A stretch of 64,000 bases of DNA from assembly GCA_016931315.1 (NCBI GenBank), contig JAFGFB010000292.1:14699-78698 (forward strand), given 5' to 3'. The notes under the pieces were generated by a model. It was not told where the DNA came from. It worked only from the letters and a program-made list of their open reading frames with translations, and made no database searches. Shown here in pieces: positions 6,178 to 46,682 of the stretch; within the stretch, counting starts at the first letter, position 1; the number at the start of each line of letters is the position of its first letter. The stretch comes from Anaerolineae bacterium. GTDB lineage: Bacteria > Chloroflexota > Anaerolineae > B4-G1 > SLSP01. The translations under genes were made by a program, and so were the position numbers.

Positions 6178-9100
6178 CTATTCCTCTGTGTCTGCCGCAG
6201 ATTCATGATCTGCTTCCGCATAGGATTGCGGCGACAATTCGCCCGTAGGTTTCTTGCGTCGGGCAGCGCCAACGCCGCCCAAACGCACTACCGCTCTCGA
6301 TGTTCCCAAAGCCCGTCCCAGCTCGCGAGCGGCAGTCTGCAGAACGCTCTGAACATCTGGGGCGGCCTGAATCTGGTCACCAATCTCACGAATCAGTTGT
6401 TCACGGCGAGCGCGTGAAGCTGTCGCTTCCAACTGATAGATGTTCTGGATAGCAACAGCAGCCTGGCCAGTCAAAGTGGTCAACCGGCGTTGCTCTTCTT
6501 CCGTAAGGTGGGTGACCGTGCCATAAGCAGCCATGAAGGTTCCAATAGCCTGTCCACCCACCAGCAAGGGCGTGAAAACCACGGTCCTACCTTGCAATGA
6601 GTTGTGGAAAAGGTCGTAGGCAGGTGCGATTTCATCCACCTCGCGTTCTACATCCGTAATCACCTGGGTGCGGTCGCGTTGCAAGTAAGGTTCGAGTAGG
6701 GCGAGTGTGTTCCCACGCGCCAGCAGCGATAAGTCAATGGGTGACGTTGCCAGGGCGTTGGGTACAACATTGGAGCCTGGCGCTCCCGTAACCCAGCGGG
6801 CTGCCAACATAGCGTTGGTAGGACGTTGACGCTCGGTCCAAGGGCGGTCGTAGAGGAGGATGGCATTGACATGCGCGCTGCCACCCAAGGCAGTGTATTG
6901 ACGCATTACGTCGAGAATCTGGACATAGGTTTGCGCTGCATTGAGGGACCCGCCAGCCTCGTACAGGACCTCGGTCTCAGCCAGGGCGGTTTGCACTTCG
7001 CGGAAGAGTCGTTCGCGCGCGAGGGTGCTCGAGAGTGCCGCGGCGACGGTCTGCACGGAGATGAGCTCCTCCGGCTTCCAATCCCGCTCCCGCAGGTTGT
7101 CACCAAAAGCCAAAAAGTTGGGGGCGCTGGCATCGCTCGGTACGGCAATCAATAACAGTGAACGGAAGTCGAGGGCTTCAAGCGCTTGTTGCTCCGCAGC
7201 ACTGGCGCGACTCGCATCCACGCGCACGAGGCCGTGGCTTCGTAGTGCGGGCAACCACTCGGGGAAGCTATCCAGGCGCCATTTGGAGGCAGCGGGGCTC
7301 TCGTTGGCGGCGGTGGGGGTCCAGTGGGCGCCGACCTCCCAATACATGCCGGCGCCCTCGGAACGTAAATCGCAATACTGCGCGGCGCCAGTCTCCAGGA
7401 CCTCGCCCAAGAGCTGCAGCACCGTGGGCATGGACTCAGTCCCGCGCTCAGCCAGCTGCGCGGTGGCTTGTGCGACGGCGTCACGGTAACGGGATTGAAT
7501 CTCAACCACACCGAGCGTCTGCTGAAGTTGAGCGAACTGCAGCGCATTCTGGGCTGAAGTAGCCAGCTGCGATCCCAGGAACTCCAGAAGGCGGACGTTC
7601 TCTTCAGTAAAATACCCTGCCGTGGTGCTGTTGGCAAACAACACGCCCACGATCTCCGCGCCCAAACGCAACGGCACGGCGACTTGGGCGACCAGGCCCA
7701 AATCCACCAACGGGGAGGCAATGCGCGAATCGGCGGCAAGCTGGTTGATGAGCACCGGGCGCCCAGTGGCACGGACCTCGGCGGTTACGCCATCGGGACG
7801 CGGCGGGGTCAAAGTTTCGGGTGCGGCAAAGCGAGGGTCTGCGGCTGAAAAGCCAGAGAAGGCGGCATGCATGTCGGCTAAGGCGTTGTTCCGCTCCCAG
7901 AAAAAGACCCGAGTGCGTTGCACGCCCAGCAGCCGCATCGCCCATTCAGCGCCGGTATTGAGCACCGCCTCGACTTCGCGCATGCCAATCATACTGAGGC
8001 CAGCCTCGTACAATTGTTGGAGGTCGCGCGCACGCCGAGCGCTTTCCTGATAGAGGCGGGCATTTTCTAGTGCCACGGTTGCCTGTGCGGCGAAAAGTTC
8101 AGCTAAGCGGCTCGCCACCGCATCAAACGGCAAAGCGCCCCGTTGCCGGGCGACGAGCAATACGCCAATGACGCCGCGCGCAGCCATCAAGGGGACCGCC
8201 AGGGCAGGACCCAGGACCGGGGCGGCAGGGTTGCCGGGGGTATGGATGCCGGTTGTATAGGCTTCAGTCTGCACGACGCGCCGCTCCAAGAGTGCCGTAC
8301 CCGGTAAGCCCTCGCCCGGGTTGAAGGAGATTCCCTGATAGGACGCCAGGTCGCCCCAAACGCTCAGACAGTGAAGTGCGGCTTGAGGTTCACTATAACG
8401 CAAGAAGGCGGCCCCATCAGCAACCAACAGTGCTTGAGCCTGGTCTACCACCAGTTGTTCTGTCGCCTCAGGGTCTAGGACTTGCCCAAAGCGCAACGAC
8501 ACTTCATAGAGCAGTTGCAGCTCGGCCGAGCGACGCTGAGTTTCCTCAAGCAAGTGCAGGTTTTCCAGCACCACAGCCACCTGCCCCGCCAGGTTGCGCG
8601 CCAGGGTACGGGTATCGGGGTCTAGCAATACGTCTTGCTGCTGGCGAATCAACGCCAGGAATCCGGCTTGAGCCGTTGCCGTGCGGATAGGGACGTAAAG
8701 AACACGTTCCAGGTCATAATTCTCGGTCAGGGTCTGAACTTCGCCCATGGGCAAAATCTTCCCCAGTTCCGGTTCAGTCAAGCCGTGGAAGAAAATCTGT
8801 AAATCCGCGGGCAGGGTGTAGATAATGCCGGGATCGAGGAGTTTCTCGCCCCCGGGGAGCACAAAGGCTTGTAAACGCACTTCTTGGGATGCGGCAATTG
8901 CCGAAGTAGTCCCAGGGGCGCCGGTCGGGGCACCGCGGAAAGTAAATACCCCAACCGCCATGGCAAGCCCGCGCGCCAGGATTCCGGCAATTTCCTCCAA
9001 AGCCTGGTCCGGGTCAAGGGTCATGGCGGCAGTCTGCAAGACGGCGTTGAGCAGGGCTTGTTGGCGCGCGGTGCGCTGGGTCTCCTCAAAAAGGCGCGCG

Positions 9101-10758: not shown

Positions 10759-10819
10759 GGGCGGGCGGACACGCAGGCGGACACGCAGGCGGACACGCAG
10801 GCGGACACGCAGGTCCGCC
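10759..10819. repeat. expanded REP-like element: GGGCGG + (gcggacacgcag) x4 + GTCCGCC
   Basis: gggcgggcggacacgcaggcggacacgcaggcggacacgcaggcggacacgcaggtccgcc. This is the left arm plus loop of the GGGCGGAC-acgcag-GTCCGCCC hairpin, repeated four times with a 12-nt period. Confidence 0.9.
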
Positions 10820-10820
10820 A

Positions 10821-12004: not shown

Positions 12005-13867
12005 GTCTTGCCGTGCGCCATTCTGCTGTGCGGCTTCCTGCCGTGCAGTTTCCTGCCGTGGGGGCAAGAGTTGAATGCGCGCCCGTTCAACCTGCAACGC
12101 TCGCCCCAGTTCCTCAACCGCACTGCGCAACACGGCGTCTATCTGCACCGAACCGCGCACGCGCCCCACGATCTCACCGCGCGCCCGCTCACGCTGGGCA
12201 CTTAAGCGTGTGTCCTCCAACAAGCGGGCGTTCTCCAAAGCCAGCCCTAATTGGTCCACCACCGTCTCCGCGAGACGGCGTTGGTCTGCGGTCCAGGGGC
12301 GTGGGGATTCGAAAGTCAAGGTCCCGAGCAAGCGCTGCTGCACGCGCAAAGGCGCCATCAACCAGTGCGAACCGGCATATTCAAGCGTCTCCACACGGCT
12401 TGGGGGATGGTCTTCGACCAACTGGCTCAAATCCTCTGGCAAACCGGGTCGGACCACTAGACGATCGTAAGCATAGTCGAGGCGTTGGTTGCGGCGCGCG
12501 AGCGCCATGCGCCAGCCACGCACGACGTCCTCTTCCTCGTATTTTTCCAGGCGAATCAAGGATTCCTGCATTCTGCCGAGCAAGAGGACATTCTCAATAG
12601 CTGCCTCAAGGTTGTTAGCCATCAAACTTAATGCCTCGCGCGCCCCTTGATCAAATGCTTCTACCTGCGCGCTAAGAATATCCAGCACACCCATGATGCG
12701 TCCGCCCGCCTCCAAGGGCAACGCAAGCTCTGAACGAATCTCGACCCACGGCGTGATATTGCCAGACGCCGCATCTGCTTGTCCTTGCCAACGCGCAAAT
12801 TCTGCCGGCGTCGAAGCCAGGCGCGGACGTGCAGTCGCCACGACGCTCTGCAACAAGCCCGGATCTCCCAAGCGCAGGTTTTGCCACCGTTCGAAACGGT
12901 TCGGCGCTGGGACCAACGGCGCAACAGCGCCACCTTCGGTGCCGGGTACGGCGGCAGATGTAGCACGCAACCGCAAGTGCTCATGCACATCATCCACCAG
13001 ATAAATTCCGACATGCGTGACCCCAAAATTGGTACAAATAAGGTCAGCCGCAGCCTGTAACAACTCTTCAAGGTCGGTTATGCCAGTGGTGCCTTGTCCA
13101 ACGCCAACAATGGCGCGGAACTGGGTGGCACGTTCTTGCAAAGCCAGGGTACGGTCTTCAACCCGTTGCTCCAATTCCTGTTGCGAACGTTCCAGATCCT
13201 GAGTGACCACCACCAGGTTGCCCAGGGTAGAATTCAGACTACTCATGTTCAAATAGGTAAGCAATCCCGCCGTGGTAATCAACATGGCGATAACGAGGGC
13301 AAAAATCTGGAAAATTTTCGCCTCAGTCGTCAGTGCAATCGGCGCTGAATACAAGCCGAGTTGTGCAGCTCCCAGAAGCAGCACGTAATAGCCGACTACC
13401 AAAGCCGTTATCAGTAGCGAATAACGTGGGGCAATCAACGTCCCGGCAACTGTGGTCGTCCAAAGGAACAATAGCCATGCCACCGAAGTCGGGCCATCAA
13501 AGATGAAGCAGGCTATTGCAATGCCGACGAAGTTAGCCCACACATACAAAGGCACAACCCGGCGTAAATAACCTCGCTTGGCTGAGACAATAGCCAGCAG
13601 CGAGGCCGGCACAAATGCCAGGGGGAAAGCGGCGGCGATGAGCGCCGTAGACAGGTCCAGATAGCCCAGCAGGTAGCTTATTACAAACACGGCTGAAACA
13701 TAAATCACCAACCCTGTGCTGATGAGCATCAGGATATTGAAGACACGTCCCTGGCGCACAATGTCAGGATCCGAAGATTCAACACGGACCAGGCGTTCCC
13801 ACCAGTTCAAGGGCGCGGCGCCAGGATCGCCGGTTGTGCGCGGCACGACTGCCGTTTGATCTTTCAT
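11969..13867 (-). CDS. S15: polytopic-membrane GAF sensor protein with no recognisable output domain
   Basis: ATG 13867 overlaps the upstream stop (TAATG). About 6 hydrophobic helices, then a coiled coil (QDLERSQQELEQRVEDRT). Divergent GAF (FGVTHVGIYLVDD...SELALPLEAGGRIMGVLDILS). Second module (GWRMALARRNQRLDYAYD...LMAPLRVQQRLLGTLTFESPRPWTADQ). Stub RERARGEIVGRVRGSVQIDAVLRSAVEELGRALQVERARIQLL, then a Q/A-rich tail. Confidence 0.85.
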   Translation of the reverse strand: MKDQTAVVPRTTGDPGAAPLNWWERLVRVESSDPDIVRQGRVFNILMLISTGLVIYVSAVFVISYLLGYLDLSTALIAAAFPLAFVPASLLAIVSAKRGYLRRVVPLYVWANFVGIAIACFIFDGPTSVAWLLFLWTTTVAGTLIAPRYSLLITALVVGYYVLLLGAAQLGLYSAPIALTTEAKIFQIFALVIAMLITTAGLLTYLNMSSLNSTLGNLVVVTQDLERSQQELEQRVEDRTLALQERATQFRAIVGVGQGTTGITDLEELLQAAADLICTNFGVTHVGIYLVDDVHEHLRLRATSAAVPGTEGGAVAPLVPAPNRFERWQNLRLGDPGLLQSVVATARPRLASTPAEFARWQGQADAASGNITPWVEIRSELALPLEAGGRIMGVLDILSAQVEAFDQGAREALSLMANNLEAAIENVLLLGRMQESLIRLEKYEEEDVVRGWRMALARRNQRLDYAYDRLVVRPGLPEDLSQLVEDHPPSRVETLEYAGSHWLMAPLRVQQRLLGTLTFESPRPWTADQRRLAETVVDQLGLALENARLLEDTRLSAQRERARGEIVGRVRGSVQIDAVLRSAVEELGRALQVERARIQLLPPRQETARQEAAQQNGARQDAAAINGAKTGG

Positions 13868-15699
13868 TACGCCTTTGCCTCCCTTTCTTCCACCAGCGCC
13901 AGGCGCACACCAGCGCGCTCGGCATCCAATGCCTGCGCCAGGTCCGCCAATGCCTGCTGCAGAACCGCTTCGATTTCAACTTGCTGCCGGAAACGCGAGG
14001 TCAGTTCGCCGGCGGTCTGTTCCAGCGTCGCGCTGCGGCGAGTAGCCTCCAGCAGGCGGGCGTTCTCCAGAGCCAGACCCAGTTGGCCCGTCACGGCTTC
14101 CACAAGCGCCCGTTCATCTTCACGCCAGGGCTTATCCGATTCAAACATCAACCTGCCGAGGGAGCGATCCCGAACATGCAGCGGCACGAGCAGAACGTGA
14201 GAGCCATCCGAGCGCTCGTGCGATTCGATCTGGGCCGGGGCGCCAGGTAGTGCGGCGGCAGGGCCGTCGTGAGGAACGGCAAAGAGCGCCTCGCTTTCGG
14301 CGGCATCAATTCCGCGCACCTGGATACGATCATATAACAGCCCAATACGTCCTTGACGTCGCTCAAACAGCTGACGCCATTGGTCCAAGAATCCCTGTTC
14401 TTCATACCGCGAAAGCCGTCCCAACAGACCCCGCAATTGTTCCAGATTGCGAGCGTTGAGGATTGCCACCCCGAGCACATTTGCCACCGCGGTCAATACC
14501 TCAACCATTTGCTCGGAAAAGGTATCGCTCGCCTCACTTTCCAATGCCAGAACACCGATCGTCTGATCCTGCACCACAATTGGAAAAGCAGCTGCGGAAA
14601 CGGTGGCGCCCAATTCAGGGAAGCGTTTATAGTAAGGGTCTGCGGTCACGTCGGTTGCCACATAGGGCTGCCCGGTCGAGGCGGCGTGCCCAACAATGCC
14701 CTCCTCGCCCACACGCAATTGCACAGCCACGGCCGACTCGCGGACTGATATTTCCTGGACGAGGCGCTCACCCGTCTCATCAATGAGAAAGACCATCACC
14801 TGATAACTGCCAAAAGCCTCAGACAACAGATGGACAGCCCGCCGTAGCAAGTCCGGCATATCGGCAGCTAAGACAATGATACGGTTCAAATCTTGCAAGA
14901 CCCGCACCTGGTTGGAGAAACGCTCAGCCTCTTGCGTGCGCTGATGTATCTGCGCCTCAAGGGAGCCTTGGGAGTCCTGCAATGCAACTGCGACATCCTC
15001 CAACTCAGCCCGCGTGGAAGATAAATGCCCAAACACATAGACCAGTAAGGTGGCACACATCGCCAGCAAGAAGAGCATGAACAAAGGGATATAGCGCGCC
15101 TGTACTTCAGCGGAAGTGACCACCAGGGGCACATAAATGCCCGATTGTTCTAGCAGGAATGTGCTGACCCACAACGCTACCATGCCCATGAAATAGCCAA
15201 ATGTTGTGAGCGGGGACAGAAAAGCCGCGGAAACGACGATGGGCCAGACAAAGAACACCCACAGGCTTGAACGTGAGCCGCCCGCAGCAATAGCGATGAC
15301 GGCAAAAACTGCAAAGACAAAGCCAACATACGCAGCGGCAACGGCGCGATAGGCATCGCGGGGATAGGCATCGTGGCGCCGAGCACGGCGTTGGTTGAAA
15401 AAGATACTCAAGCCATGCCAAAGCAAACTAATCACTCCCACCACAACAAGCATAGAGGGGGGAATATTGAAGAACCCGCGTGCGTATACCGCCACAAAGA
15501 AAGCCGGCACAAACACGGAAAAGGCAATGCCGATCAAGAGCGCGATATTGAGCAGCGTCGCCATGCGGACTTCATAGCCGTCGCTGTCCCAGACACGCAG
15601 CAGGCGAGCCAGGGCATTCTGGGGATCAGTCTTATGGGTACGCCGCAACTGGTATTGCCGTTTCGATGGGTCCACCGCCGATGTAACTCGCAGCGCCAT
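13867..15699 (-). CDS. S14: polytopic-membrane GAF sensor protein with no recognisable output domain
   Basis: Preferred start is ATG 15699, with GGAGGAG upstream, 1 nt after the S13 stop. The track start 15741 would overlap S13 by 41 nt. About 6 TM helices. GAF (FGSYQVMVFLIDETGERL...AAFPIVVQDQTIGVLALES). Second module (FLDQWRQLFERRQGRIGLLYD...LLVPLHVRDRSLGRLMFESDKPWRED). Stub LEQTAGELTSRFRQQVEIEAVLQQALADLAQALDAERAGVRL. Confidence 0.85.
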   Translation of the reverse strand: MALRVTSAVDPSKRQYQLRRTHKTDPQNALARLLRVWDSDGYEVRMATLLNIALLIGIAFSVFVPAFFVAVYARGFFNIPPSMLVVVGVISLLWHGLSIFFNQRRARRHDAYPRDAYRAVAAAYVGFVFAVFAVIAIAAGGSRSSLWVFFVWPIVVSAAFLSPLTTFGYFMGMVALWVSTFLLEQSGIYVPLVVTSAEVQARYIPLFMLFLLAMCATLLVYVFGHLSSTRAELEDVAVALQDSQGSLEAQIHQRTQEAERFSNQVRVLQDLNRIIVLAADMPDLLRRAVHLLSEAFGSYQVMVFLIDETGERLVQEISVRESAVAVQLRVGEEGIVGHAASTGQPYVATDVTADPYYKRFPELGATVSAAAFPIVVQDQTIGVLALESEASDTFSEQMVEVLTAVANVLGVAILNARNLEQLRGLLGRLSRYEEQGFLDQWRQLFERRQGRIGLLYDRIQVRGIDAAESEALFAVPHDGPAAALPGAPAQIESHERSDGSHVLLVPLHVRDRSLGRLMFESDKPWREDERALVEAVTGQLGLALENARLLEATRRSATLEQTAGELTSRFRQQVEIEAVLQQALADLAQALDAERAGVRLALVEEREAKA

Positions 15700-15700
15700 T

Positions 15701-26070: not shown

Positions 26071-26099
26071 CCGCCGGTCATGCCGCCGGTCATGCCGCC
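26071..26099. repeat. 12-nt tandem repeat (2.4 units) spanning the S9 stop and the S9/S10 spacer
   Basis: ccgccggtcatg occurs twice, followed by ccgcc. It shares the ccgccggtc core with the S10 tail repeat at 23773-23813. Confidence 0.85.
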
Positions 26100-33314: not shown

Positions 33315-33426
33315 TTCCACTCCTCCACCCACACTATAGGTAATTGTCATTCCAACGTTAACTACTTCACAGAGCTTTCAAACTCGCCACTACCGTCCGG
33401 CAAACCGGCTTCAAGACCACTATTCG

Positions 33427-36685: not shown

Positions 36686-38035
36686 TCATTCCACGTGCGC
36701 AACCGTAGCGCTGGCAGTATTGATAAGCCCACCGGCGGCATCCTGTGATGTCGCAGCGTCCTGTGACGCCGCGCTCGGTGAGGCTGATAACAATTGTGCT
36801 TGCGTTCCTAAGCGCATGACCGCAGTTTTAGCGCTCAACAATTTTGCCAATTCCTCTGTTACAATGCGCAAAACAGCTTGGGTATCGGCAGCCCCGATAA
36901 TCCGTTCAGTCAGCGTGCGCACCTGCTGCTCCTGAAACGCTTGCTTCTGAAGGCGTCCAAATAGCTGCGCGTTGTATACCGCATTCGCCACCGGAATCGC
37001 GAATGCCTGAATCAACGCCTGATCGTGCTCATCGAAGGCATAAGCCTCCGTATAACTCTCAATCGCCAGAACTCCCACCACACGATTCAACGCCAGCAAG
37101 GGTGTCCCCATCCAGGAATTGGCCTGCTGTCCCACATGCTCAAAACCATGCTCGCGGCAAAAAGCGATTTCCTCGTTAGGGTTACGGAACAACAAGGAGC
37201 GCCGTTCCTGAATGATATATCCGGTGAGACCCTCATCCAGCGGATATTCCTGACTGGGCAGGCGTTCACCATTCTGAATATCAAAGTCCGAAGTCCAGAT
37301 GCCCCGCTCTTCATCCACCAACGCAATGTAGAAACTGGAAGCATCGAAAAGTCGCCCCAGCTGTGTATGCGCAGTCTGAAATATGTCTTCAAAATCACGA
37401 GTCGCTGCGAGGGCTTGCCCAACCTCGTTGAGCACCGTCATCTCCTGAATGCGGCGGGCTTGCTGCGTTGACAGACGGGCATTCTCTAGCGCCGCCGCAG
37501 CCTGGTTGGCAACGGTCACCAACAAGTCACGTTCCCGCTCGCCAAACAAGTTCTGCGTGGTGTAACTCTGTACAGTCATCACCCCGATGACGCGGTCGCC
37601 AATCATCAAAGGTGCCCCCAGCCATGATTTGGCTCCCGACACACCCAGAATGCGCACCCCCAACTCAACTATGTGATCCATGACGCCATCCGCCAATAGT
37701 AATGGCGCTCGTGTCTGAATAACGTATTCAGTCAGACCGCCGCTCAATTTGCGATAGGTGCGTTCACCTCGTTCAACACGTTGACCCTCGGTAATATCCA
37801 AACAGAAGAACAGTTCTTGTTTGAGCTCGTCATAAAGGGCAATGTAGAGATTCGTTGTGTCCATCAAACGCGACACGGCTCGATAGACGCCCTCAACGAC
37901 CCCATCAATTCCCAGACCAGCAGCAGTCAATGCTGCCATATCCTGGATGACAGATAACGCAGCAAATGCCGCGGCATTTGCCGCTGTGTCAGCCATCGTT
38001 TCAGCCGTCTGTGAACGCAACCCTTCGTTCGTCAT
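36686..38035 (-). CDS. S5: soluble tandem-GAF protein ending in the family stub
   Basis: ATG 38035 overlaps the S4 stop (ATGA), with GAGGAGG upstream. No hydrophobic segments. Two GAFs (TNLYIALYDELKQELFF...WLGAPLMIGDRVIGVMTVQS; SSFYIALVDEERGIWTS...WMGTPLLALNRVVGVLAIES). Stub QEQQVRTLTERIIGAADTQAVLRIVTEELAKLLSAKTAVMRL. Confidence 0.88.
   Translation of the reverse strand: MTNEGLRSQTAETMADTAANAAAFAALSVIQDMAALTAAGLGIDGVVEGVYRAVSRLMDTTNLYIALYDELKQELFFCLDITEGQRVERGERTYRKLSGGLTEYVIQTRAPLLLADGVMDHIVELGVRILGVSGAKSWLGAPLMIGDRVIGVMTVQSYTTQNLFGERERDLLVTVANQAAAALENARLSTQQARRIQEMTVLNEVGQALAATRDFEDIFQTAHTQLGRLFDASSFYIALVDEERGIWTSDFDIQNGERLPSQEYPLDEGLTGYIIQERRSLLFRNPNEEIAFCREHGFEHVGQQANSWMGTPLLALNRVVGVLAIESYTEAYAFDEHDQALIQAFAIPVANAVYNAQLFGRLQKQAFQEQQVRTLTERIIGAADTQAVLRIVTEELAKLLSAKTAVMRLGTQAQLLSASPSAASQDAATSQDAAGGLINTASATVAHVE
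36738..36770. repeat. imperfect 15/18-nt tandem repeat in the S5 C-terminal tail
   Basis: gcatcctgtgatgtc followed by gcagcgtcctgtgacgcc. It encodes AASQDAATSQDAA on the minus strand. Confidence 0.7.
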
Positions 38036-40947
38036 AAATGCACCTCCTCAGCAGCAACCGCTGCCTCAGCCGCAGCCGCTGCCGGGGACTCAGGTAGGGT
38101 GACATGAACTGTGGCTTCCGCAACCCCAGGCAAACGTCCCAATTGTGTCACCGCGGTTTGCAACACGGTCGTCACATCCAGAGACTGCCGCAGTTGTGAC
38201 GCAATTTCACCAATCAAGCGTTCATTGGCTGCCCGACTCTGGGTCTCCTGATAGAGTTGTGCGCTTTCCAGTGCCTGCCCCAGTTCCGCAACCACGGCTT
38301 CCAACAACAAACGCTCATCATCCAGCCACACCGCTTCGGCGCCAGATTTACGAAAATCAAGCACGCCGACAATCCGCTCCCGAACGCGAAGGGGAATCAC
38401 CAACGTGCTACGCCACACATCACCCACAGTCAAAGGCTCGCGCTCACGGTAAATAACACTGCGTCCCGCTTGTAGCGCTTCGGTCATTCCCGAAGACCAG
38501 GAATCCTCAACCGCGCTGAAAGTGCGGTAAGCATAGCGATAGCCGCCCCCGCGACCTGAGAGGACTCTTTGCCAACCGAGCTCGCTCTTTTCGCCATAGG
38601 CTCTGCGAGTAGCGTCCAATGCTTCTTGGGTAGCGGCGATCAGTTCAGCATTATCCAATGCAACCGCGAGTTGATCCACCATCGTCTGCAATACGGCTAT
38701 GGCCGAGGCATCAAAAACATCTTCTCGTGTATGCTGTACAGTCAAAGCGCCCAACACACGCCCACGCGACCGCAACGGCAACGCCGCCTCGGAGCGCGTC
38801 TCAGGCAACTCCGCAGTTGCCTGCCGCACCGCGTCCTCCCCCGCATGCAAGGCAATGCGCGCCTCAGAATTTTCGATACACCAACTAATCATGGAGCGCG
38901 ATCCGATGCGGAGACGGTGTCCGCGCGCCATCATTGCCCGCCCGGCTTCTCCGGTGCCGGCCCGCAACACTGCCCACTCGCCCGCCGCATCTAGCAGGAA
39001 CAGACCTACATAGTAAAGGCCAAAGTGGTCGCGAATCAGATTGACGGTCTGCGAGAGCAAAGATTCCGTATCCAGAATGGATGTTGCCGCCTGGCTCACC
39101 GTGGAAGCCGCCTCCAGATATGCAGCGCGCTGTTCCAGATCACGGGTGCGATCGGCAACCTGCGTCTCCAAACCGGCAATCAGTGAACGCAAGCGAGCCG
39201 TCATTTGATTAAAAGCATCCGCCAAAAATCCCAACTCATCTTCGGAAAGTACCGGGGCTTCCCGGTCAATATTGCCGGCACTGATATCCAAAACTGCCGC
39301 GGTGAGTTCTTCAACGGGGCGGAATGCCTGGCGGAAAGCCAACCAGGAAAGGCCCATCAGGATGAGAGCGCTGACGAAAACACCCGCTATGGAGAGAATC
39401 CGCAATGAACGTACTTGAGCCAGCAACTCCTGTTCGTTCACCTGAATAATCAAGCCCCAGTCGTTTTCCAATTCCGCAATATAAGCCTGCCAACGCACAG
39501 CATTAGCATCGTCAAAGCGATAGATACCCCTGGCGCCGCCCATCAACGCCGCCGCCGGAGGATAGTCCAGAATCGTCGTTTGTTGTGCGGTGAAGAATTC
39601 CAGGTCCGAAGCCAGAATCAAGCCTTGAGGTCCCACCAGGTAAGCCAGGCCCGTATCGCCAACACGATAGCGCGCCAGCAAATCAGAAATATCGGTCAAA
39701 GTGCTGGCAAACATACTCACGCCAACAACCTCGCCCGAGCCATCGCGAATTGGCTCCGACATGATCAAGGCTGGCACACCGCTTGTGCGCCCAATTACCG
39801 TCTGCAAGCCCGGCTGACCTGCCACGGCTTGTTGATACCATTGCCGGTCACTGTAATCGAGCAAATCACTCTCGTCGTTGCGAGCGACATTGAAGCCCGC
39901 CAAATCCGTCGTGCTGACCAGATACATGTAGGGATAGGTCACGGCAAAATCCTGCAAGACGGGCCGCTGAAAGTTTGGATTCATACTGGTGATTTCCGGA
40001 CGGGATGCCAAAAGCGCCAGGGATTTGCGGTTAAAGTCCATCCAAGAGGTGATGTTATAAGCCAGCAACTCACTATTCGATTCCAACTGCCCCAACGCAC
40101 TCTGGCGTAACAATGCGTTTACGTTGACACTGATCAGAGCAATACTGCCGACCAACAAAGGGGCGCTGATAACGAGCACCATTGCGGTCAACCGGGGGCG
40201 TAATCGTCCCCCCTGCAAGCCGCCTTCGGAAACCAGCGCCTGGAATGCCACATAGGCGTAAATCACGATAAATTGCCCAATCGTCAACAATGCCGGAATG
40301 CCAGGCGGCAACAACCGTGGGAGAATCACCTGGAGCAGGAAAGCGAGGAATTGCGCCACAAGCAACAGGCGCGCCAAACGCCGGCGCAAAACAGAGATCC
40401 CTCGATCAACAAAAGCCAGATAGATCAAGGTCAACATCACCAGTACGGGCACAATCCGCATATTCACCAGGCGCACAACGTTACCCAATGCCCCACCCGT
40501 GAATTCGGGAACGTCAACAAACCCGCCCATATAACGGAGCGGATTCAGGCCGGTGTAATAGAGGTTCAGCCCCGTCAGGAAGTCCAACCCAACCAGCAAC
40601 GCCGGCAGCAACACCAGCCCATAGCCCACGTACAATGGGTAACGCATCCGGGTTTTGAACCACTCGGGCTTCACAAACGCAACCGCAACAATGCCTAGCA
40701 ACGGCAACACAGCCGGCGAAGTCATTGCGACCAGCGGCGCAGCCCAAGACACCTCATCAGCACGCTGAGCGCCCCAGAACACGCCCAAAACCAGGGTATT
40801 GACCGCAAAGACCAGCATCAAAACTGTCAGGTGTGCATTACCACGGTTGCGGATGTTTAGCACAGACACATAGAGCGCCAGAATCAACGCCAGAATCGCT
40901 AACGACCAGGCAAATAGTTGTTCCACAGAAAACGCCTGAGGCGTCAT
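38032..40947 (-). CDS. S4: multi-TM block + Cache-like + HAMP + GAF sensor protein with no recognisable output domain
   Basis: ATG 40947 overlaps the S3 stop (ATGA). About 8 N-terminal TM helices. Cache-like region (YSDRQWYQQAVAGQPGLQTVIGRTSGVPALIMSEPIRDGSGEVVGV). HAMP (LADAFNQMTARLRSL). GAF FGLYYVGLFLLDAAGEWAVLRAGTGEAGRAMMARGHRLRIG. Module LGWQRVLSGRGGGYRYAYR...LVIPLRVRERIVGVLDFRK. Stub NERLIGEIASQLRQSLDVTTVLQTAVTQLGRLPGVAEATVHV. Confidence 0.88.
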   Translation of the reverse strand: MTPQAFSVEQLFAWSLAILALILALYVSVLNIRNRGNAHLTVLMLVFAVNTLVLGVFWGAQRADEVSWAAPLVAMTSPAVLPLLGIVAVAFVKPEWFKTRMRYPLYVGYGLVLLPALLVGLDFLTGLNLYYTGLNPLRYMGGFVDVPEFTGGALGNVVRLVNMRIVPVLVMLTLIYLAFVDRGISVLRRRLARLLLVAQFLAFLLQVILPRLLPPGIPALLTIGQFIVIYAYVAFQALVSEGGLQGGRLRPRLTAMVLVISAPLLVGSIALISVNVNALLRQSALGQLESNSELLAYNITSWMDFNRKSLALLASRPEITSMNPNFQRPVLQDFAVTYPYMYLVSTTDLAGFNVARNDESDLLDYSDRQWYQQAVAGQPGLQTVIGRTSGVPALIMSEPIRDGSGEVVGVSMFASTLTDISDLLARYRVGDTGLAYLVGPQGLILASDLEFFTAQQTTILDYPPAAALMGGARGIYRFDDANAVRWQAYIAELENDWGLIIQVNEQELLAQVRSLRILSIAGVFVSALILMGLSWLAFRQAFRPVEELTAAVLDISAGNIDREAPVLSEDELGFLADAFNQMTARLRSLIAGLETQVADRTRDLEQRAAYLEAASTVSQAATSILDTESLLSQTVNLIRDHFGLYYVGLFLLDAAGEWAVLRAGTGEAGRAMMARGHRLRIGSRSMISWCIENSEARIALHAGEDAVRQATAELPETRSEAALPLRSRGRVLGALTVQHTREDVFDASAIAVLQTMVDQLAVALDNAELIAATQEALDATRRAYGEKSELGWQRVLSGRGGGYRYAYRTFSAVEDSWSSGMTEALQAGRSVIYREREPLTVGDVWRSTLVIPLRVRERIVGVLDFRKSGAEAVWLDDERLLLEAVVAELGQALESAQLYQETQSRAANERLIGEIASQLRQSLDVTTVLQTAVTQLGRLPGVAEATVHVTLPESPAAAAAEAAVAAEEVHL

Positions 40948-42962
40948 GCTGCCACCTCCTCGCCCGTTGGTGCACCAACCGTTGGCGTGCCAACCGTTGG
41001 CGCGCCAACCATTGGCGTCGCTCCAGCTTGTGGCGAGGTAAACCGGACTTCAGCCTCAGCCAGCCCTAAGACATCACCGACTTCACGAAGCACCGTGCGC
41101 AACATCGTTTCCACATCCAGCGTTTCTCGCATGCGCGTCGTAATCTCTCCGGTTAGCTGCTCGCGAGCCGCCTGGCGCTGGCTGGCTTGATAAAGTCGAG
41201 CGCTTTCTAGAGCCTGCGCCAACTCCTGTGCCGCGCGTGAGGCGAACGTGATCTCCTCTTCTACCCAGGGACGCGCAGCGGGGCGTCGAATTTGGAGTAC
41301 ACCCAGGTCTAAACCGGAAAACGTCAACGGCAAAAGCAAGGTATTATCCTCGGCAACCTGTGGCTGCTTTAACTCACCTGTCGCGTCCTCAATCTTTGTC
41401 TCACCACTAAGCGCCTCCAGAGTGCGTGGTGTATAAAGATAGCCACGCAGCCCTAACTGCGCCATGAACTCAAACCAGGAGCGCCGCGCATCCGCACGAT
41501 ACGTTCGCTGCAGTTCCTGAATGGCCTGTTGACGTTGCGAAAAAACGAGTGCATTGGCAATGGCAATAGAGATTTGATCCGCCAAAATACGAAGGGTATT
41601 GATATCCTCGTTTTTGAAAGCACCAGTCGCCTGACTTTGTACATCCAACGCACCCATCACCTGCCCACCCACAATAAGTGGCAGTGCCATCTCAGAGTGG
41701 GTCTCCGGCAAATCAGGATTATCGAACCACACCATGTCATCACCCACATCCAAAGCAATGCGGGGACGCCCGGTCTGCGTCACATAACCCACAATACCTT
41801 GCGCTCCGACTCCCAAACGGTGACCACGGGCAACCATCCGCTGCCCCCCAGCTGACGAAGCAGCCCGCAATACCGCCCACTCGCGGGTGTCATCTAAAAG
41901 GAAAATACCGGCATGGTAGAATCCAAACTGCTCAGAGATCAACGCCGCCACCTGCGCCAGGAGCTCATCCAAATCCAGAATCGAGGCGGCAACGCGGCTT
42001 ACCTCACCCGTAGCGCGCAAATAAGCAGCCTGACGTTCCAGGTCGTGCGTGCGTGAAGTCACGCGCTCTTCCAGGCCACTCACCGTTTCACGGAGGCGTC
42101 GGGTCATCTCATTAAATGCTGCCGCCAATTGCGCGGATTCCTCTTCTTCAGGTAACGGCGCCTCGTAGTTCAAATCGCCAGCGCGAACGCGCTCAACCGC
42201 AGACACCAAAGTTCCCAGGTGAGCCGTAAGGCGGCGCCCCAACGCCAACCCCGCCAACACAGTCAAGGGCGCCGCGACCAACAGGGCAATGGCGCCAATC
42301 TGAACAAAAGCCAGCTCTTGCCGGCGCACATCCGTCGCCTCAAGATCAACGCCCAAAACCGCTACCAGTGTGCCATCCGCCGCACGAAGAGGCGCATAAC
42401 CTGATAGCCAAACCCCCCACTGATCCTCGTAAAAATCCTCTTCAACAGCGGCGCTCGCCAGCGTGCCAATAGACTGCGCCAACAACGGACCCGGATCATC
42501 ATATACGCTGCCAGGCAGAGCCGCGTCTTCCGGAATTTCTTCAGCATCAGCCACGAAATAGATTTTTCCGTCGGCTCCCTGACGCATGAGATACGCAAAA
42601 CGGGCTCCACTGATGCGGTCGCGGGCAACACGCAATTGTGCAATCACAGCATCCAGGGTTGCTGAAGGTCCCGGTTCTGCCTCAACCAGTTGGGCCACAG
42701 CATCCGTGTCCAGACTTAAGGCAGCCAGGGAGACCGCATCTTGATGCCGTGACCGGATTTCCTGGCGCAAATACGGGCGCAACACGAACAGCGCAACCAC
42801 GATAATAAACGCCAGCAACGTCAACAGATTCAGGGCAACCAAAGCGGTCGTCACCCTTGTACGCAAGCGTGGGCGCACCTTTGACGCCCCGGCCCCTGGC
42901 GCCGCAGTTACCCGGGTCAGTATCCCGCTTGGCGGTGGCGCGAAATCCTGCTTCACGCTCAT
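40944..42962 (-). CDS. S3: TM + periplasmic sensor + HAMP + GAF sensor protein with no recognisable output domain
   Basis: ATG 42962 overlaps the S2 stop (ATGA), with GGAGGAAG upstream. TM, periplasmic region of ~190 aa (fold not assigned), TM, HAMP (AAAFNEMTRRLRETV). GAF FGFYHAGIFLLDDTREWAVLRAASSAGGQRMVARGHRLGVG. Module RSWFEFMAQLGLRGYLYTP...LLLPLTFSGLDLGVLQIRRPAARPWVEEE. Stub REQLTGEITTRMRETLDVETMLRTVLREVGDVLGLAEAEVRF. Confidence 0.88.
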   Translation of the reverse strand: MSVKQDFAPPPSGILTRVTAAPGAGASKVRPRLRTRVTTALVALNLLTLLAFIIVVALFVLRPYLRQEIRSRHQDAVSLAALSLDTDAVAQLVEAEPGPSATLDAVIAQLRVARDRISGARFAYLMRQGADGKIYFVADAEEIPEDAALPGSVYDDPGPLLAQSIGTLASAAVEEDFYEDQWGVWLSGYAPLRAADGTLVAVLGVDLEATDVRRQELAFVQIGAIALLVAAPLTVLAGLALGRRLTAHLGTLVSAVERVRAGDLNYEAPLPEEEESAQLAAAFNEMTRRLRETVSGLEERVTSRTHDLERQAAYLRATGEVSRVAASILDLDELLAQVAALISEQFGFYHAGIFLLDDTREWAVLRAASSAGGQRMVARGHRLGVGAQGIVGYVTQTGRPRIALDVGDDMVWFDNPDLPETHSEMALPLIVGGQVMGALDVQSQATGAFKNEDINTLRILADQISIAIANALVFSQRQQAIQELQRTYRADARRSWFEFMAQLGLRGYLYTPRTLEALSGETKIEDATGELKQPQVAEDNTLLLPLTFSGLDLGVLQIRRPAARPWVEEEITFASRAAQELAQALESARLYQASQRQAAREQLTGEITTRMRETLDVETMLRTVLREVGDVLGLAEAEVRFTSPQAGATPMVGAPTVGTPTVGAPTGEEVAA
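40964..41021. repeat. 15-nt tandem repeat (~3.9 units) in the S3 C-terminal tail
   Basis: ccgttggtgcaccaa ccgttggcgtgccaa ccgttggcgcgccaa ccattggcgtcgc. It encodes ATPMVGAPTVGTPTVGAPTG on the minus strand. Confidence 0.9.
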
Positions 42963-44698
42963 TGATCTTCCTCCACAGACTCCACCGGTGGCAATGGTCC
43001 CGTTCCAGGGGGTTTACCGGCTTGTTGCGCTGGCGAGGTTAACGCTAGCACCACCTCATTCGCATCAAGTGCGGTGCCGATTTCTCGCACACCATGGCGT
43101 AGTATCGTTTCCACATCGAAACTAGACCAAATCAAATCTCCCACATGCGCAAGCTGCTCCTGATAGAGCGCCTTGCGACGGCTATCGCGCAGAAGGCGAA
43201 CTGTATCGAAAGCCCCGGCCAGGCGCTCAACAGCAGTCGTGGCCAGAAGTAAAGCTTCAGTCTCCCACGGAGCTGCCTGCTCGCCCGGAAGCGTCCCGCT
43301 CGCCTGGCGCGTAAAAGCCACATAGCCCAAATTGGTTTCGCGCCAGGTAAGCGGCGTTAATAGTAACCATCCCCCCACACCACCCGGCAGCCCCACAACA
43401 TGAGGTTTCCCATCGCGCAACATCTCGGTAGCTAAAAGGTGAATACTCTCAGCCGGCGATTCTCCCACTTGCACCTGATGCGATATTCCCTCAGAACTTA
43501 ACAACGACCGCCATGAGGTACCCGCGACCTGTGCATAAAGCGTGCGCAGCTCTTGCGCTCGTGCCGAAGTTTCCTCGAGCAGGCGCAAAATATTCAAAGC
43601 CGCAGAGACCTGATCGCTCAACACCCGGAAGATGCGCACATCTTCTTCGGCAAAAGGCTTCCGGCTGCCATAAATTCCCAGAACCCCTAGCAGCTCGCCG
43701 CCGAAGATCAAAGGTAAAGCGACCTCCGCGCGGCGCAAGGGGAAGCGCTCATCACCCGCAGGGATTGCAGTCTCAGCCGTCCCAAGTTGCGCCACCCGTC
43801 CCGGCAATGATTCACCGCCCACAGCCAACGACCAACCAGCATCCACCAGAGCTTGACCCTGCGCACCGGCAGCAGCCGCCAGGTTCAGTTGCTCCCCGCG
43901 CACATCGAGCAGGAAAACATTAGCCTGGTACAATCCGAAAGCACTCACAAGTTCTTCAACCAAACGGTGCAATAGACCATCGCGGTCGCGCATTCGCGCC
44001 AGGTTACGCGAGAGCATAGCCACACGGTCAATGCGATCAGCCTGCCTGCGTGCCCGTTGCGCCTCTTCTTGTGACTGAAGCCGGAGTTTCTGCGCCACGT
44101 CGGCGTTGCTCTGTAACTCCTCAATGGATTTTGATAAAAATTTCCGGTACTCGCTAATCGTCAACCCTAGAACCAGAATGACCGTGATGGGTACGAAAGC
44201 CTCAATCGCCCATGATCCCAAATCCAGAGGATTCTGAGCCTGCAACGGGACCAGACGGCCTTGCGCATATCCCCAAGCCACTAACGCATAGCCACCCAAG
44301 GCTAAGGCGCTCCAAAGCCACAAGCCGCGTCGCCCCAATAACAAAGTTGCCAGTAATGGCACCAGCAACAGCCAGAAACGACCTGCCCCCACCAATCCAT
44401 TTTGCGCTAAAATATACAACCCGCTACCCAAAGCAATCAGCAAAAAACCGCTAATACGCACCACTGGGGACCAGGTTTTGACAAAGGCTAGAACCAGGAA
44501 GAAACCATATAAACCCAGGAAGATCACAATCTGCCAATACAGAGCACGGCTAATCGCGGTTGGGATCCAAAACAACAACAATAACATGCCCGCAACGACC
44601 GAAAATGCCAGCAAGCGCGCGAGCAACCAATCGCGAAACTGCATTTCCTGGTGGGAAAGGTTCTCACCATGTGGAGAAGTCACATCATGAGGATTCAT
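42959..44698 (-). CDS. S2: polytopic-membrane GAF sensor protein with no recognisable output domain
   Basis: ATG 44698 has GGAGTGA upstream and overlaps S1 by 14 nt. About 6 TM helices. GAF FGLYQANVFLLDVRGEQLNL...AEVALPLIFGGELLGVLGIYGS. Second module (TSWRSLLSSEGISHQ...LLLTPLTWRETNLGYVAFTRQ). Stub QEQLAHVGDLIWSSFDVETILRHGVREIGTALDANEVVLAL. Confidence 0.85.
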   Translation of the reverse strand: MNPHDVTSPHGENLSHQEMQFRDWLLARLLAFSVVAGMLLLLFWIPTAISRALYWQIVIFLGLYGFFLVLAFVKTWSPVVRISGFLLIALGSGLYILAQNGLVGAGRFWLLLVPLLATLLLGRRGLWLWSALALGGYALVAWGYAQGRLVPLQAQNPLDLGSWAIEAFVPITVILVLGLTISEYRKFLSKSIEELQSNADVAQKLRLQSQEEAQRARRQADRIDRVAMLSRNLARMRDRDGLLHRLVEELVSAFGLYQANVFLLDVRGEQLNLAAAAGAQGQALVDAGWSLAVGGESLPGRVAQLGTAETAIPAGDERFPLRRAEVALPLIFGGELLGVLGIYGSRKPFAEEDVRIFRVLSDQVSAALNILRLLEETSARAQELRTLYAQVAGTSWRSLLSSEGISHQVQVGESPAESIHLLATEMLRDGKPHVVGLPGGVGGWLLLTPLTWRETNLGYVAFTRQASGTLPGEQAAPWETEALLLATTAVERLAGAFDTVRLLRDSRRKALYQEQLAHVGDLIWSSFDVETILRHGVREIGTALDANEVVLALTSPAQQAGKPPGTGPLPPVESVEEDQ

Positions 44699-46682
44699 AA
44701 TTCACTCCTTCTCCCGAGGGCGCTAACGGAGTCAGGCTCACGAGCACACCATCCGCATCCACCAACGTCTGTAACGCACTCGCCGCGCTCGAAGCCAACA
44801 GCTGCAGGTCAAAGATATCCGCCAATTGATCGGAGAAACCGCGCAACTGCTGTTCCATTTCCACCCGGCGGCGTGCGCTACGCATCAGCTGCAAACGCTG
44901 GAGCGCAGCCCCAGAAAACTCCATTAACAAGCCAAACAGAGTCTCTTCTGCAGCGGTGAATCCATGCAAGGTATGGAAAACAATTCCCAGTATGCCCATC
45001 AGGTGGCCCTCGGCATGGAATGGCACTAATGCCAAACTGCGTAAGGAACCGCGTACAGCGAGTTGCCTCAATGACTCCCACTCGGCGCCGTCTAAAGACG
45101 CGCCCACAAACGTCAACGGAGGGTTCGCCACATCGGGGATAAGTAAGGGCTGCTGCGCTCGCAAAACAGCCGGAATCAGCGCCTCTTCAGCAAACCAATG
45201 TGCCATGGAATGCTGCAAGTCAGGGAAACGCAGGCGCTCGCCACGCAGCTCCGCCACTAACGTCGCCCGCCCAGCCGCCCGCTCCGACTGCCCAGGCGCC
45301 TGCTCCAGCCGCCCAGCCTCTTCAGCAAGGGTCATAATGAAAGCGCGTTGCGGAGAATACTCCCGAACCGAGTCAAGAATGGCGGTATAGACCTCCTGGT
45401 CGGTCCAGGCTTTTGCGAAACGCTGCGCCAGGCGATAGAGCGGACTGGTAGCTTCAAGCAGAGCCGCTTCTTCATTCACGCGGCGGGCATTCATAAGTGC
45501 TACTGCCAATTGCCTTGCCGAAAGTTCCAGCACACGGAGGTCATCCGCATCAAAAGCTTCATCCTCCAGACTTTGCAGATCCAACACACCCAAAATCTGA
45601 TCCTCATACAGCAATGGCAGAAGTGCCGCGGAGCGCGCCTCACGCAAACGCCAGAGATCTTGAGGATCCTTGGGGGTCAGAATCTGGGGCTGCCGCTTCT
45701 GCCACACACGCCCAACCATCGTCTCACTCACAGGGACCCGAAAACCTTCCTGCAAGCGCTGCTGACCCGCCTCAGATGTGGCAGCGTGCAAAACCAGCAT
45801 TGCGCCATCAGGACGCTCTTCGGGCAAGTAGAGACCTACATGATGCAAGTCGAAAATCCTCGCAAAAGCCTGCACAGCACGGCTCAGCAACGGCGTGAGA
45901 GCCAACAGTGAGCCAGTCTCAGCGCTAAAGGCAGCCGTGCCCTCCAACAAGAACACCCGTCGCTGTAGCGAGGTATTTACCTGTTGGATGCTCCGTGCGC
46001 GTGTGTCTACCTCCGCCTGTTGCGCCTCCAGCACGGCAATACGTTGACGGCTTTCTGCCACGGCAGCGAGAAACCGGGGCACAAGATAACGCTGCACAAT
46101 GATTAACATGGTACTCAGCAACGCCAGGGATACGGTATCACTCACCAGAGATACCGGCGCAACCCCAATCAAAAAAGGCTCGGTGAGCGGTGGCAATTCC
46201 AGCACACCGGTTACACCGAGCATACCCACAGTCAAAATGGTCAACATGGAGAGCCCCAAAGCCAAAAAGCCTTGGTACACACCGTAAAACAGTGAGGTCA
46301 ACAAAGAGAGTGAGAGAAAGAAAAGCCGCGCATCTTCCTTCCAACCAAAAACCAAAAGATCAGCCAGGCCCATGAGATACAGGAGCGCCAAGACACCTGA
46401 GACTTGGATGGTATAGGGCACTTTGCGCCAGAAGGTAAAGACCAGCACCACCAAATATGCCAAAGCATAACCCATCACCAATGCGATGTGTCCGCGCAGA
46501 TAAGCGCCATAGGCGCTAAAAGCGAGAGCGAACGGACCGGCAATCACCACGGCGAGCAGAAGACCGTGCACTAGCTGCGTGCGCCAAAGCTGCGCTTCGC
46601 GCAAAGCCGCATCCGCAGTCGGCAAATGCGCGCCCGCCCAATCATCACGAAGCCATGATTTCAGCTGTCCCCAAATCTGCAT
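44685..46682 (-). CDS. S1: polytopic-membrane GAF sensor protein with no recognisable output domain
   Basis: ATG 46682 has GAGGAGG upstream. About 7 TM helices. GAF FDLHHVGLYLPEERPDGAMLVLHAATSEAGQQRLQEGFRV...AALLPLLYEDQILGVLDLQS, then a second GAF-like region. Divergent stub MEQQLRGFSDQLADIFDLQLLASSAASALQTLVDADGVLVSL. Confidence 0.85.
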   Translation of the reverse strand: MQIWGQLKSWLRDDWAGAHLPTADAALREAQLWRTQLVHGLLLAVVIAGPFALAFSAYGAYLRGHIALVMGYALAYLVVLVFTFWRKVPYTIQVSGVLALLYLMGLADLLVFGWKEDARLFFLSLSLLTSLFYGVYQGFLALGLSMLTILTVGMLGVTGVLELPPLTEPFLIGVAPVSLVSDTVSLALLSTMLIIVQRYLVPRFLAAVAESRQRIAVLEAQQAEVDTRARSIQQVNTSLQRRVFLLEGTAAFSAETGSLLALTPLLSRAVQAFARIFDLHHVGLYLPEERPDGAMLVLHAATSEAGQQRLQEGFRVPVSETMVGRVWQKRQPQILTPKDPQDLWRLREARSAALLPLLYEDQILGVLDLQSLEDEAFDADDLRVLELSARQLAVALMNARRVNEEAALLEATSPLYRLAQRFAKAWTDQEVYTAILDSVREYSPQRAFIMTLAEEAGRLEQAPGQSERAAGRATLVAELRGERLRFPDLQHSMAHWFAEEALIPAVLRAQQPLLIPDVANPPLTFVGASLDGAEWESLRQLAVRGSLRSLALVPFHAEGHLMGILGIVFHTLHGFTAAEETLFGLLMEFSGAALQRLQLMRSARRRVEMEQQLRGFSDQLADIFDLQLLASSAASALQTLVDADGVLVSLTPLAPSGEGVNYESS

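Follow-up and report, generated by a model that had tools for sequence, protein, structure and literature searches.

Results

A conserved C-terminal segment in 16 sensor-like proteins

Sixteen large sensor-like proteins encoded side by side in an Anaerolineae genome end in the same 47-residue segment, which sequence comparison identifies as the opening of a GAF domain of the phytochrome/cyanobacteriochrome class, retained at the C terminus without the body of that domain. The genes lie in a 64,000-nucleotide stretch of contig JAFGFB010000292.1 (hereafter the window, to which all coordinates refer); we call their products S proteins and the shared segment the stub. We propose, with about an even chance of being right, that the stub is a dimerization hairpin that caps a signalling helix and provides a shared contact surface.

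The array (6178..46682, minus strand) comprises 18 dense, co-directional open reading frames (ORFs) in the ORF list of the window, and many of the tightly packed gene junctions overlap by 1-4 nt. Sixteen of the 18 encode S proteins and two encode substrate-binding proteins. According to Pfam, the S proteins have input modules of the Cache_3-Cache_2, dCache_1, MASE11, Peripla_BP, ABC_sub_bind, or 4HB-like type, mostly followed by HAMP and then by one to seven GAF domains. In Pfam and NCBIfam scans, all 16 were free of output domains, HisKA, HATPase, GGDEF, EAL, and MCPsignal included. The combination of HisKA and HATPase_c that defines a two-component histidine kinase is thus absent from the S proteins (0/16), whereas both genes that flank the array encode it. 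Neither are they methyl-accepting chemotaxis proteins (MCPs): there is no MCPsignal match, and similarity to MCP models is confined to the level of HAMP and Cache.

The 16 S proteins align over a conserved module of some 190-210 aa at their C termini. It opens with a linker helix that has an invariant Trp at its end, followed by a variable stretch of 40-60 aa, a beta-hairpin and helix, the stub, and a tail. The hairpin-helix part reads 'W..eE..ll...QL..ALEsARLYqdtq' and matches just the final third of GAF models; we refer to this reduced GAF, with a short hairpin, one helix, beta5-beta6, and alpha5', as the mini-GAF. As an example, the Trp linker helix, mini-GAF, junction, stub, and tail occupy aa 391-584 of o26090 (26093..26674, minus strand). 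The stub itself, with the consensus RAarErL..E.T.R.RE.LD.e.vL.TA..E....L.l....VrL in the alignment of the 16 C termini, is placed after the last GAF-type helix 'ALEsARLYqdtq' and before a short acidic/Gly/Ala/Pro tail, and the proteins stop 2-38 aa past the beta1 sequence.

In a scan of the window with a hidden Markov model (HMM) made from 69 stubs, 14 S-protein C termini scored 40-70 bits (independent E-value, i-E, 1e-13 to 1e-22). These stubs, all on the minus strand, are located at 6274..6414 in o6178_10821 (aa 1470-1516 of 1547, RARREQLIREIGDQIQAAPDVQSVLQTAARELGRALGTSRAVVRLGG; 61.0 bits), 12062..12202 in o11969_13867 (aa 556-602 of 632; 51.0 bits), 13894..14034 in o13867_15741 (aa 570-616 of 624; 45.7 bits), 15710..15850 in o15701_19903 (aa 1352-1398 of 1400, with only 2 aa beyond the stub; 40.7 bits), 19926..20066 in o19836_21371 (aa 436-482 of 511; 50.6 bits), 21419..21559 in o21368_23689 (aa 711-757 of 773; 52.4 bits), 23818..23955 in o23728_26046 (aa 698-743 of 772, the alpha2-beta1 loop being one residue shorter; 57.0 bits), 26144..26284 in o26090_27844 (aa 521-567 of 584, RAARERLVGEVSGRIRETLDLETMLRTAAEQMRQALDLEDLIVRLVP; 70.2 bits), 27868..28008 in o27841_30279 (aa 758-804 of 812; 60.5 bits), 30372..30512 in o30336_32237 (aa 576-622 of 633; 63.3 bits), 33487..33627 in o33427_36741 (aa 1039-1085 of 1104; 63.9 bits), 38095..38235 in o38032_40947 (aa 905-951 of 971; 56.4 bits), 41034..41174 in o40944_42962 (aa 597-643 of 672; 68.2 bits), and 43034..43174 in o42959_44698 (aa 509-555 of 579; 47.7 bits).

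The two remaining stubs, also on the minus strand, score lower. That of o36686_38035 (36803..36943, aa 365-411 of 449; 23.0 bits, 6e-8) belongs to the sole S protein in which the stub stands directly behind a full GAF, without a mini-GAF. The stub of o44685_46682 (RVEMEQQLRGFSDQLADIFDLQLLASSAASALQTLVDADGVLVSLTP; 44727..44867, aa 606-652 of 665) is divergent; it gives a marginal, partial HMM match of -1.8 bits and was placed from the alignment, in which the pattern is still visible by eye. The initial annotation of this DNA, made from the sequence alone, had seen a shared ending in every S protein. This is confirmed well past chance, as 15 clear cases and one divergent case.

Sequence relatives of the stub

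Pfam and NCBIfam contain no model for the stub. When four stubs alone were scanned against Pfam, no family was matched at E <= 10, neither a non-GAF domain nor GAF itself (PF01590/PF13185/PF13492). Against local GAF models of 133-139 positions the stub spans approximately the first 30-46 positions. It does not constitute a complete GAF fold, that is, a five- to six-stranded sheet with helices in about 130-160 aa, since AlphaFold models it as two helices and no strand. With the full GAFs of the window itself, hhalign matches stub positions 20-45 to GAF positions 2-27 at a probability of 83%. The second-best matches of the stub HMM within the S proteins are likewise the starts of internal full GAFs, with weak i-E values of 2e-5 to 0.1. 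The resemblance to these internal GAF starts that was noted initially is therefore real but loose, and the stub is closer to the phytochrome/cyanobacteriochrome class.

This closer relationship emerged from a PDB search with a stub profile of 78 sequences and 47 positions. The best matches were SyB-Cph1 8W26 (3e-12), 6OAP (6e-12), SyB-Cph1 2LB5 (4e-9), and NpR6012g4 6BHN (4e-8), followed by 8K9O, 6OZA/B, 3OOV, 6UV8, 6XHG, and AnPixJg2 3W2Z, with E-values of 3e-12 to 3e-2 overall; for ten different GAF chains, the range is 3e-12 to 5e-4. The register was always that of the GAF N terminus: all PDB matches pair stub positions ~4-43 with the 40 residues that open a phytochrome/cyanobacteriochrome-type GAF. 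Moreover, the whole module is colinear with residues 150-244 of SyB-Cph1 (i-E 5e-13), which comprise the last GAF strands and last helix, the connecting spine helix, and the first PHY helices. Based on the PDB matches and the colinearity of the module, we identify the stub as the alpha1(RIT)-alpha2-beta1 segment of a phytochrome/cyanobacteriochrome-class GAF. The earlier description of a GAF N terminus thus stands, as two helices plus the strand-1 sequence in place of the single helix and strand first proposed.

At the position of the RIT motif, S-protein stubs have E(68%)-V/I(92%)-T(77%) instead of R-I-T, and a helix is predicted there. The stub ends ahead of the region that holds the bilin pocket (Cys, DIP/Asp motif), and the central part of the pocket is missing from the mini-GAF. 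In the SyB-Cph1 crystal structure, the residues aligned to the stub form alpha1(RIT) and alpha2, which together with alpha6 make a three-helix bundle in each protomer; two such bundles constitute a six-helix dimer interface (PMC11264168). Deletion of SyB-Cph1 residues 2-29 converts the dimer (124 kDa) into a monomer (58 kDa) and leaves bilin binding and photoconversion intact (PMC11264168). Helix 2 of the stub has a broad hydrophobic face of the a/d/e type (positions 21, 24, 25, 28, 29, 32, 35, and 36), as expected for a helix that is buried on two sides, and the beta1 residues V43 and L45 stay hydrophobic and conserved.

Alternatively, the terminal hairpin might be a DHp-like element without the phospho-acceptor His that response regulators or kinase catalytic domains would meet as a decoy or docking site. 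Its topology is the same, in that the first helix extends the upstream coiled coil and the second folds back; 'LVGEVTSRIRETL' aligns by eye with the H-box 'FLANMSHELRTPL', and there is a weak match to the NCBIfam model of the MadS kinase over the mini-GAF end and stub (residues 459-555 on profile positions 124-221). However, Pfam HisKA (PF00512) matches no stub at E <= 10, the stub HMM misses the H-box region of both neighbouring kinases, and Ser, Gly, Ala, or Thr occupies the position equivalent to the phospho-acceptor His. Helix 2 comprises merely 15 residues, and the statistically strong relatives are GAF N termini, not DHp domains. We consider a pseudo-DHp very improbable and rejected it for want of Pfam or stub-HMM support.

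Predicted structure of the C-terminal module

Two AlphaFold models were analyzed, one of aa 244-584 of o26090 (GAF, mini-GAF, and stub; mean pLDDT 89) and one of the complete 449-aa o36686 (GAF, GAF, and stub; mean pLDDT 78). In both, the domain before the stub ends in a helix that merges with helix 1 of the stub into one unbroken helix of 46 residues (H249-294 in the first model, H336-381 in the second). After a three-residue turn at the conserved 'LD' follows the 15-residue helix 2 (H298-312 and H385-399, respectively). The stub was modelled at a pLDDT of ~85-90, so it is not predicted to be disordered, and the tail is disordered in both models. The short terminal strand proposed in the initial annotation did not materialize: the hydrophobic segment is unpaired in both monomer models (DSSP coil; pLDDT ~70-89). 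A Foldseek search with the o26090 model returned tandem-GAF modules (CyaB2 and PDE2A; E 6e-10 to 2e-9) and phytochrome GAF-PHY as the nearest folds.

A straight 46-residue helix, ~69 Å in length, would place the stub far from the sheet of the mini-GAF. Because the helix is unbroken in both models, packing of the stub back onto the preceding module, one of the roles considered initially, is disfavored. The same models bear on a circular permutation in cis, in which a duplication followed by truncation would have left the stub to supply helix and strand 1 to the upstream mini-GAF. The order of GAF-model matches would fit this arrangement, with the mini-GAF covering the last third (~80-139) and the stub positions 1-30/46, and each beta5-beta6-alpha5 unit of the family has a stub behind it. 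Yet alpha5' and stub alpha1 are joined in one continuous helix, and the terminal strand has no pairing partner. The junction, free of Gly and Pro, is nearly fixed in length, like the connecting helices of tandem GAFs, and the mini-GAF possesses a short beta-hairpin of its own ('lgY..d..G') in addition to a Trp-bearing N-terminal helix. In o36686, the stub sits behind a complete GAF.

Mean-field direct-coupling analysis (~280 sequences, Meff ~225-243) gave no usable signal for such a permutation. The first two runs were swamped by gap artefacts; a gap-free run ranked several mini-GAF/stub pairs high, but their contingency tables contained no real covariation, and the analysis was discarded as unreliable. 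Permutation in cis was rejected on the continuous alpha5'-alpha1 helix, the unpaired end segment, and the mini-GAF's own hairpin, and we regard it as very unlikely.

Conservation of the end point in related loci

A protein search with the module retrieved 87 relatives from Anaerolineae/Chloroflexi metagenomes, and 25 of the 25 that we inspected end shortly past the stub. A genome scan, with one genome per species, gave 240 matching stretches, from which 76 loci were kept. These originate from Chloroflexota metagenome-assembled genomes (MAGs) labelled Anaerolineae, Thermoflexales, or Chloroflexia, and from one MAG labelled Phycisphaerae. The Phycisphaerae-labelled locus (L009, JAGPEO010000064.1) matches at 88% identity; its label could reflect a binning error or horizontal transfer.

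Across 75 loci from Chloroflexota MAGs there are 222 unique stub-bearing ORFs, from about 60 other assemblies. A stop occurs within 40 aa past the stub in 214 of the 220 stop-terminated homologues, with a median distance of 12 aa and a maximum of 98 aa, and none of the 220 reads through into a GAF. Related 8-kb loci have three to five co-oriented stub-bearing genes each, the next gene usually follows at once, and no ORF among them carries two stubs. The proposal that these proteins stop right past the opening of another GAF is borne out by these counts together with the profile searches, and homologues in other genomes share the end point.

Among the paralogues of the window, pairwise identity is 0.36-0.40 in the stub, 0.38 in the folded GAF core, and 0.17-0.24 in the variable regions of the module. 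Paralogue DNA is 60-79% identical even in the best-matching stretches, without a sign of recent gene conversion. Conservation at the DNA level or gene conversion at the gene ends was rejected on this ground, and conservation must thus operate at the protein level. The distance from the conserved Trp to L45 (76 residues) is free of insertions and deletions in 274 of 287 unique sequences; 11 of the exceptions are one residue shorter, and two are shorter by exactly seven residues, or one heptad. Such a near-fixed length is the behavior expected of a register-sensitive signalling helix.

Since the stub homologues stop just past the stub and none reads into a GAF, we conclude that the stub is a real, selected feature and neither a frameshift artefact nor decay. 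Its functional status, already argued in the initial annotation, gains from a paralogue conservation equal to that of the folded GAF core and from homologues that always end there. The opposing possibility, a leftover of truncated kinase genes or a frameshift or assembly error, draws on the many multi-GAF proteins, the adjoining hybrid kinase among them, in which the same junction leads on to full GAFs and kinases. Against it stand the 222 homologues with their uniform stops and usually immediate next genes, the near-invariant length of the stub, and its retention despite the divergence of the paralogue DNA. We regard this possibility as barely credible and effectively refuted.

The tails beyond the stub are variable, with a median of 11 aa, and 80% have a net negative charge; a conserved motif of the kind of the MCP pentapeptide was not found among the tails of the stub homologues. 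A gene for a ParA/MinD-like ATPase (IAISNQKGGVAKTTTCLSLGA...) was noted in the related loci L051, L054, L062, L063, and L067 (at ~7.1-8.1 kb) and L066 (3-455). Stub and acidic tail could in principle be a localization or turnover tag that is recognized by a positioning ATPase or a protease, and the ParA/MinD-like gene, which in 5-6 related loci lies just behind stub-bearing genes, would agree with this, as would the disordered, mostly negative tails. We find it highly improbable, given that the window has no ParA-like gene, that the tails have no conserved motif, and that a structured, length-invariant 47-aa helical segment is unlike known degrons and tethering peptides.

The junction in multi-GAF proteins

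A 78-position profile of the last helix, junction, and stub was compared with 1.84 billion representative proteins and matched 28,503 of them at E <= 1e-3 and 12,211 at E <= 1e-10. The top matches are multi-GAF proteins of 1,100-3,900 aa with 7-21 copies each, spaced ~160-180 aa apart, in which the stub-like starts run on into full GAFs. Among the best 150 matches, a kinase is present in 83, and 22 end in a mini-GAF and stub without a kinase, like the 1400-aa and 1547-aa S proteins of the window. The stub sequence is therefore the ordinary start of a widespread GAF subfamily, and what is not common is to end on it.

The S family fits an origin by truncation of multi-GAF kinases inside the GAF behind the mini-GAF, because kinase-type proteins, including the adjoining hybrid kinase, continue past the mini-GAF into full GAFs. 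As a relic of truncated kinases, the stub is thus described in its origin and not in its present state. A few rare relatives carry the unit repeatedly: protein P0224 has the mini-GAF and stub three times. In P0140, a stub is followed by 14 residues, only beta5-beta6-alpha5, and then a second, terminal stub. Both architectures imply a minimal three-strand GAF core of alpha1-alpha2-beta1-beta5-beta6-alpha5.

These architectures show that a stub together with a GAF remnant is viable, and they are in line with a split-domain docking tag, whereby a partner with beta2/beta5-beta6-alpha5 and an output such as a kinase would complete the stub in trans. If so, many sensors could plug into one transmitter. 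The sheet-facing alpha2/beta1 residues stay hydrophobic and conserved even though the sheet is missing, the stub has been kept undiversified across 16 co-resident paralogues, and the output-less S proteins sit between two kinase genes. On the other hand, the GAFs of both flanking kinases are complete, an N-terminally truncated GAF partner is absent from the window and from 600 kb of related loci, and AlphaFold models the terminal segment at high local confidence without a partner. We consider a docking tag of this kind unlikely.

Flanking genes and other features of the window

Downstream, the array is followed by a giant hybrid histidine kinase (2..6202, minus strand) with 2067 aa or more, cut off by the left end of the window and for that reason missing from the ORF list. 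Its frame, open over 2067 codons, encodes at least eight GAFs, PAS, HisKA, HATPase, and the beginning of a receiver domain, and its H-box is canonical (SHELRTPL; FLANMSHELRTPL). It contains an S-like GAF and mini-GAF module, from which the chain runs into full GAFs and the kinase, in agreement with the earlier remark that the equivalent segment continues into a full GAF there. Plus-strand ORFs across 2-6202 have no Pfam matches and look like antisense shadows. The upstream neighbour (46815..49280, minus strand) is a TM-HAMP-GAF-HisKA-HATPase protein. Its H-box (residues ~585-597, FLANMSQELRGPL) has Gln at the position of the phospho-acceptor His, and the protein is possibly a pseudokinase or else a kinase-like regulator. 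A kinase was rejected as obligate neighbour of such arrays, since 75 related loci yielded one kinase fragment (within 4 kb).

The two interleaved genes for lipoprotein-type substrate-binding proteins (10821-11966 and 32298-33350, minus strand) encode ABC_sub_bind, NMT1/THI5-like products. Substrate-binding-protein genes are also interleaved with the sensor genes in many related arrays, and an ABC_sub_bind/NMT1-type domain is fused to the N terminus of several S proteins. Together, the interleaved and fused substrate-binding domains suggest that binding-protein/sensor units may be paired.

A 32-nt palindromic element (TCAGTTGGGCGGACACGTAGGTCCGCCCCAAC, with the stem GGGCGGAC/GTCCGCCC) is present in four copies that are 75-94% identical (10793-10824, 16680-16711, 19005-19036, and 19864-19895), inside or at the ends of S-protein ORFs. 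It encodes peptides resembling 'GADLRVRP', for example in the tail of o19836 and in the odd N terminus of o6178 (MADLRVRLRVRLRV), and may be an element of the repetitive extragenic palindromic (REP) or miniature inverted-repeat transposable element (MITE) type that is tolerated in coding sequence. Upstream of the array, 49398-64000 contains an apparent purine-catabolism cluster with genes for xanthine dehydrogenase-type molybdenum cofactor (MoCo), FAD, and 2Fe-2S subunits, a xanthine/uracil permease, AllG, an FdrA-like CoA ligase, a cyclase, and a thiolase, with no obvious link to the sensors.

Discussion

The role that we propose starts from the N-terminal third of a phytochrome-class GAF, which would have been retained as the C-terminal end-piece of output-less sensors. 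The last helix of the mini-GAF is predicted to continue into helix 1 of the stub, and helix 2 to fold back at 'LD', so that a long helical spine would carry a helical hairpin at its membrane-distal tip. In a sensor dimer, two such hairpins may pack as a four-helix bundle that closes and stabilizes the signalling coiled coil. The bundle would at the same time present a conserved surface through which ligand-induced helix movement might be read out to a common partner or to other members of the family. A contact-surface role is suggested by the lack of an enzymatic output in the S proteins, and as helix 2 and beta1 both stay hydrophobic, a symmetry mate or a partner would have to cover them. Of the roles considered at the outset, one in docking or oligomerization is favored by the dimer interface that the homologous SyB-Cph1 helices form (PMC11264168).

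Several points weigh against this proposal. We infer the four-helix bundle from secondary structure and homology. A real GAF has alpha1 and alpha2 packed on its own C-terminal helix and on its beta-sheet, both of which are missing in the S proteins, and a lone two-helix hairpin may be unstable. A purely helical bundle leaves the conserved hydrophobic beta1 residues unexplained. Conservation of the stub is not above that of the GAF core and does not by itself single out a key interface. Finally, a partner was not found: kinase genes flank the array in the window, but the related loci supplied the single kinase fragment mentioned above.

A bolder variant, which we think quite unlikely, would make the stub a half-GAF 'plug' at the sensor tip that is completed by an output-fused 'socket' protein or pairs with the helices of a full-length multi-GAF kinase. 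In that case, dozens of different, co-expressed sensors would deliver their signals to one transmitter by complementing a split signalling domain.

The dimerization hairpin and contact surface that we prefer would concern an abundant group of proteins. Chloroflexota of the Anaerolineae/Thermoflexales group have large tandem arrays of membrane sensors with input domains and without a transmitter, and the literature searched contained no prior description of the S family or of proteins that end in a conserved GAF fragment. The alpha1-alpha2 start of the RIT type is known, as is the junction that ordinarily links one GAF to the next; new is the apparent co-option of a GAF fragment as the terminal element of abundant, uncharacterized output-less sensors. 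The stub is a clean natural case of a domain fragment that remains under selection after the rest of the domain has been lost, which bears on where domain boundaries are drawn and on how split or truncated tools are built from GAFs and phytochromes. Its 47 residues offer a concrete handle on the oligomeric state, partners, and signalling of these sensors.

Among known systems, the closest counterpart of the stub is the start of the GAF in PAS-less phytochromes and cyanobacteriochromes such as SyB-Cph1, NpR6012g4, and AnPixJg2, to which it is homologous over ~40 residues. SyB-Cph1-type GAFs and the stub have the same helix-turn('sLD')-helix-strand pattern, the (R/E)-(I/V)-T motif at the same place, and the same preceding junction helix 'A.L(Y/L)...Q.A..ER'. 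The S-protein chain, by contrast, stops past beta1 and thus lacks the GAF body, bilin Cys, DIP motif, and alpha6, and its stub stands at the C terminus of the protein and not at the start of a domain. Giant multi-GAF histidine kinases match the same profile of alpha5, junction, and stub as the S proteins, but their copies lead into full GAFs and the proteins end in a kinase, whereas the S family has no transmitter. The tandem-GAF modules of PDE2A (1MC0) and CyaB2 (1YKD), the closest to our model by Foldseek, have long connecting helices that form the spine of a dimer; the S proteins have a strongly reduced second GAF, and a stub takes the place of the catalytic domain.

Sensors that act without a transmitter have precedent. 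NreA is a stand-alone GAF protein that acts on the kinase NreB by contact, as an accessory sensor without a transmitter of its own. NreA-type sensors and S proteins both sense ligands without an enzymatic output, so that protein-protein contact is needed; NreA is a single complete GAF, whereas the S proteins are large, membrane-anchored, multidomain, encoded in arrays, and end in half a domain. MCPs, by analogy only, also combine diverse N-terminal sensor modules (Cache, 4HB, and HAMP) with a conserved helical C-terminal module in many paralogues that have no enzymatic activity. They differ from the S proteins, which have no MCPsignal domain and no Che genes in the window, and whose hairpin comprises ~35 residues instead of ~300.

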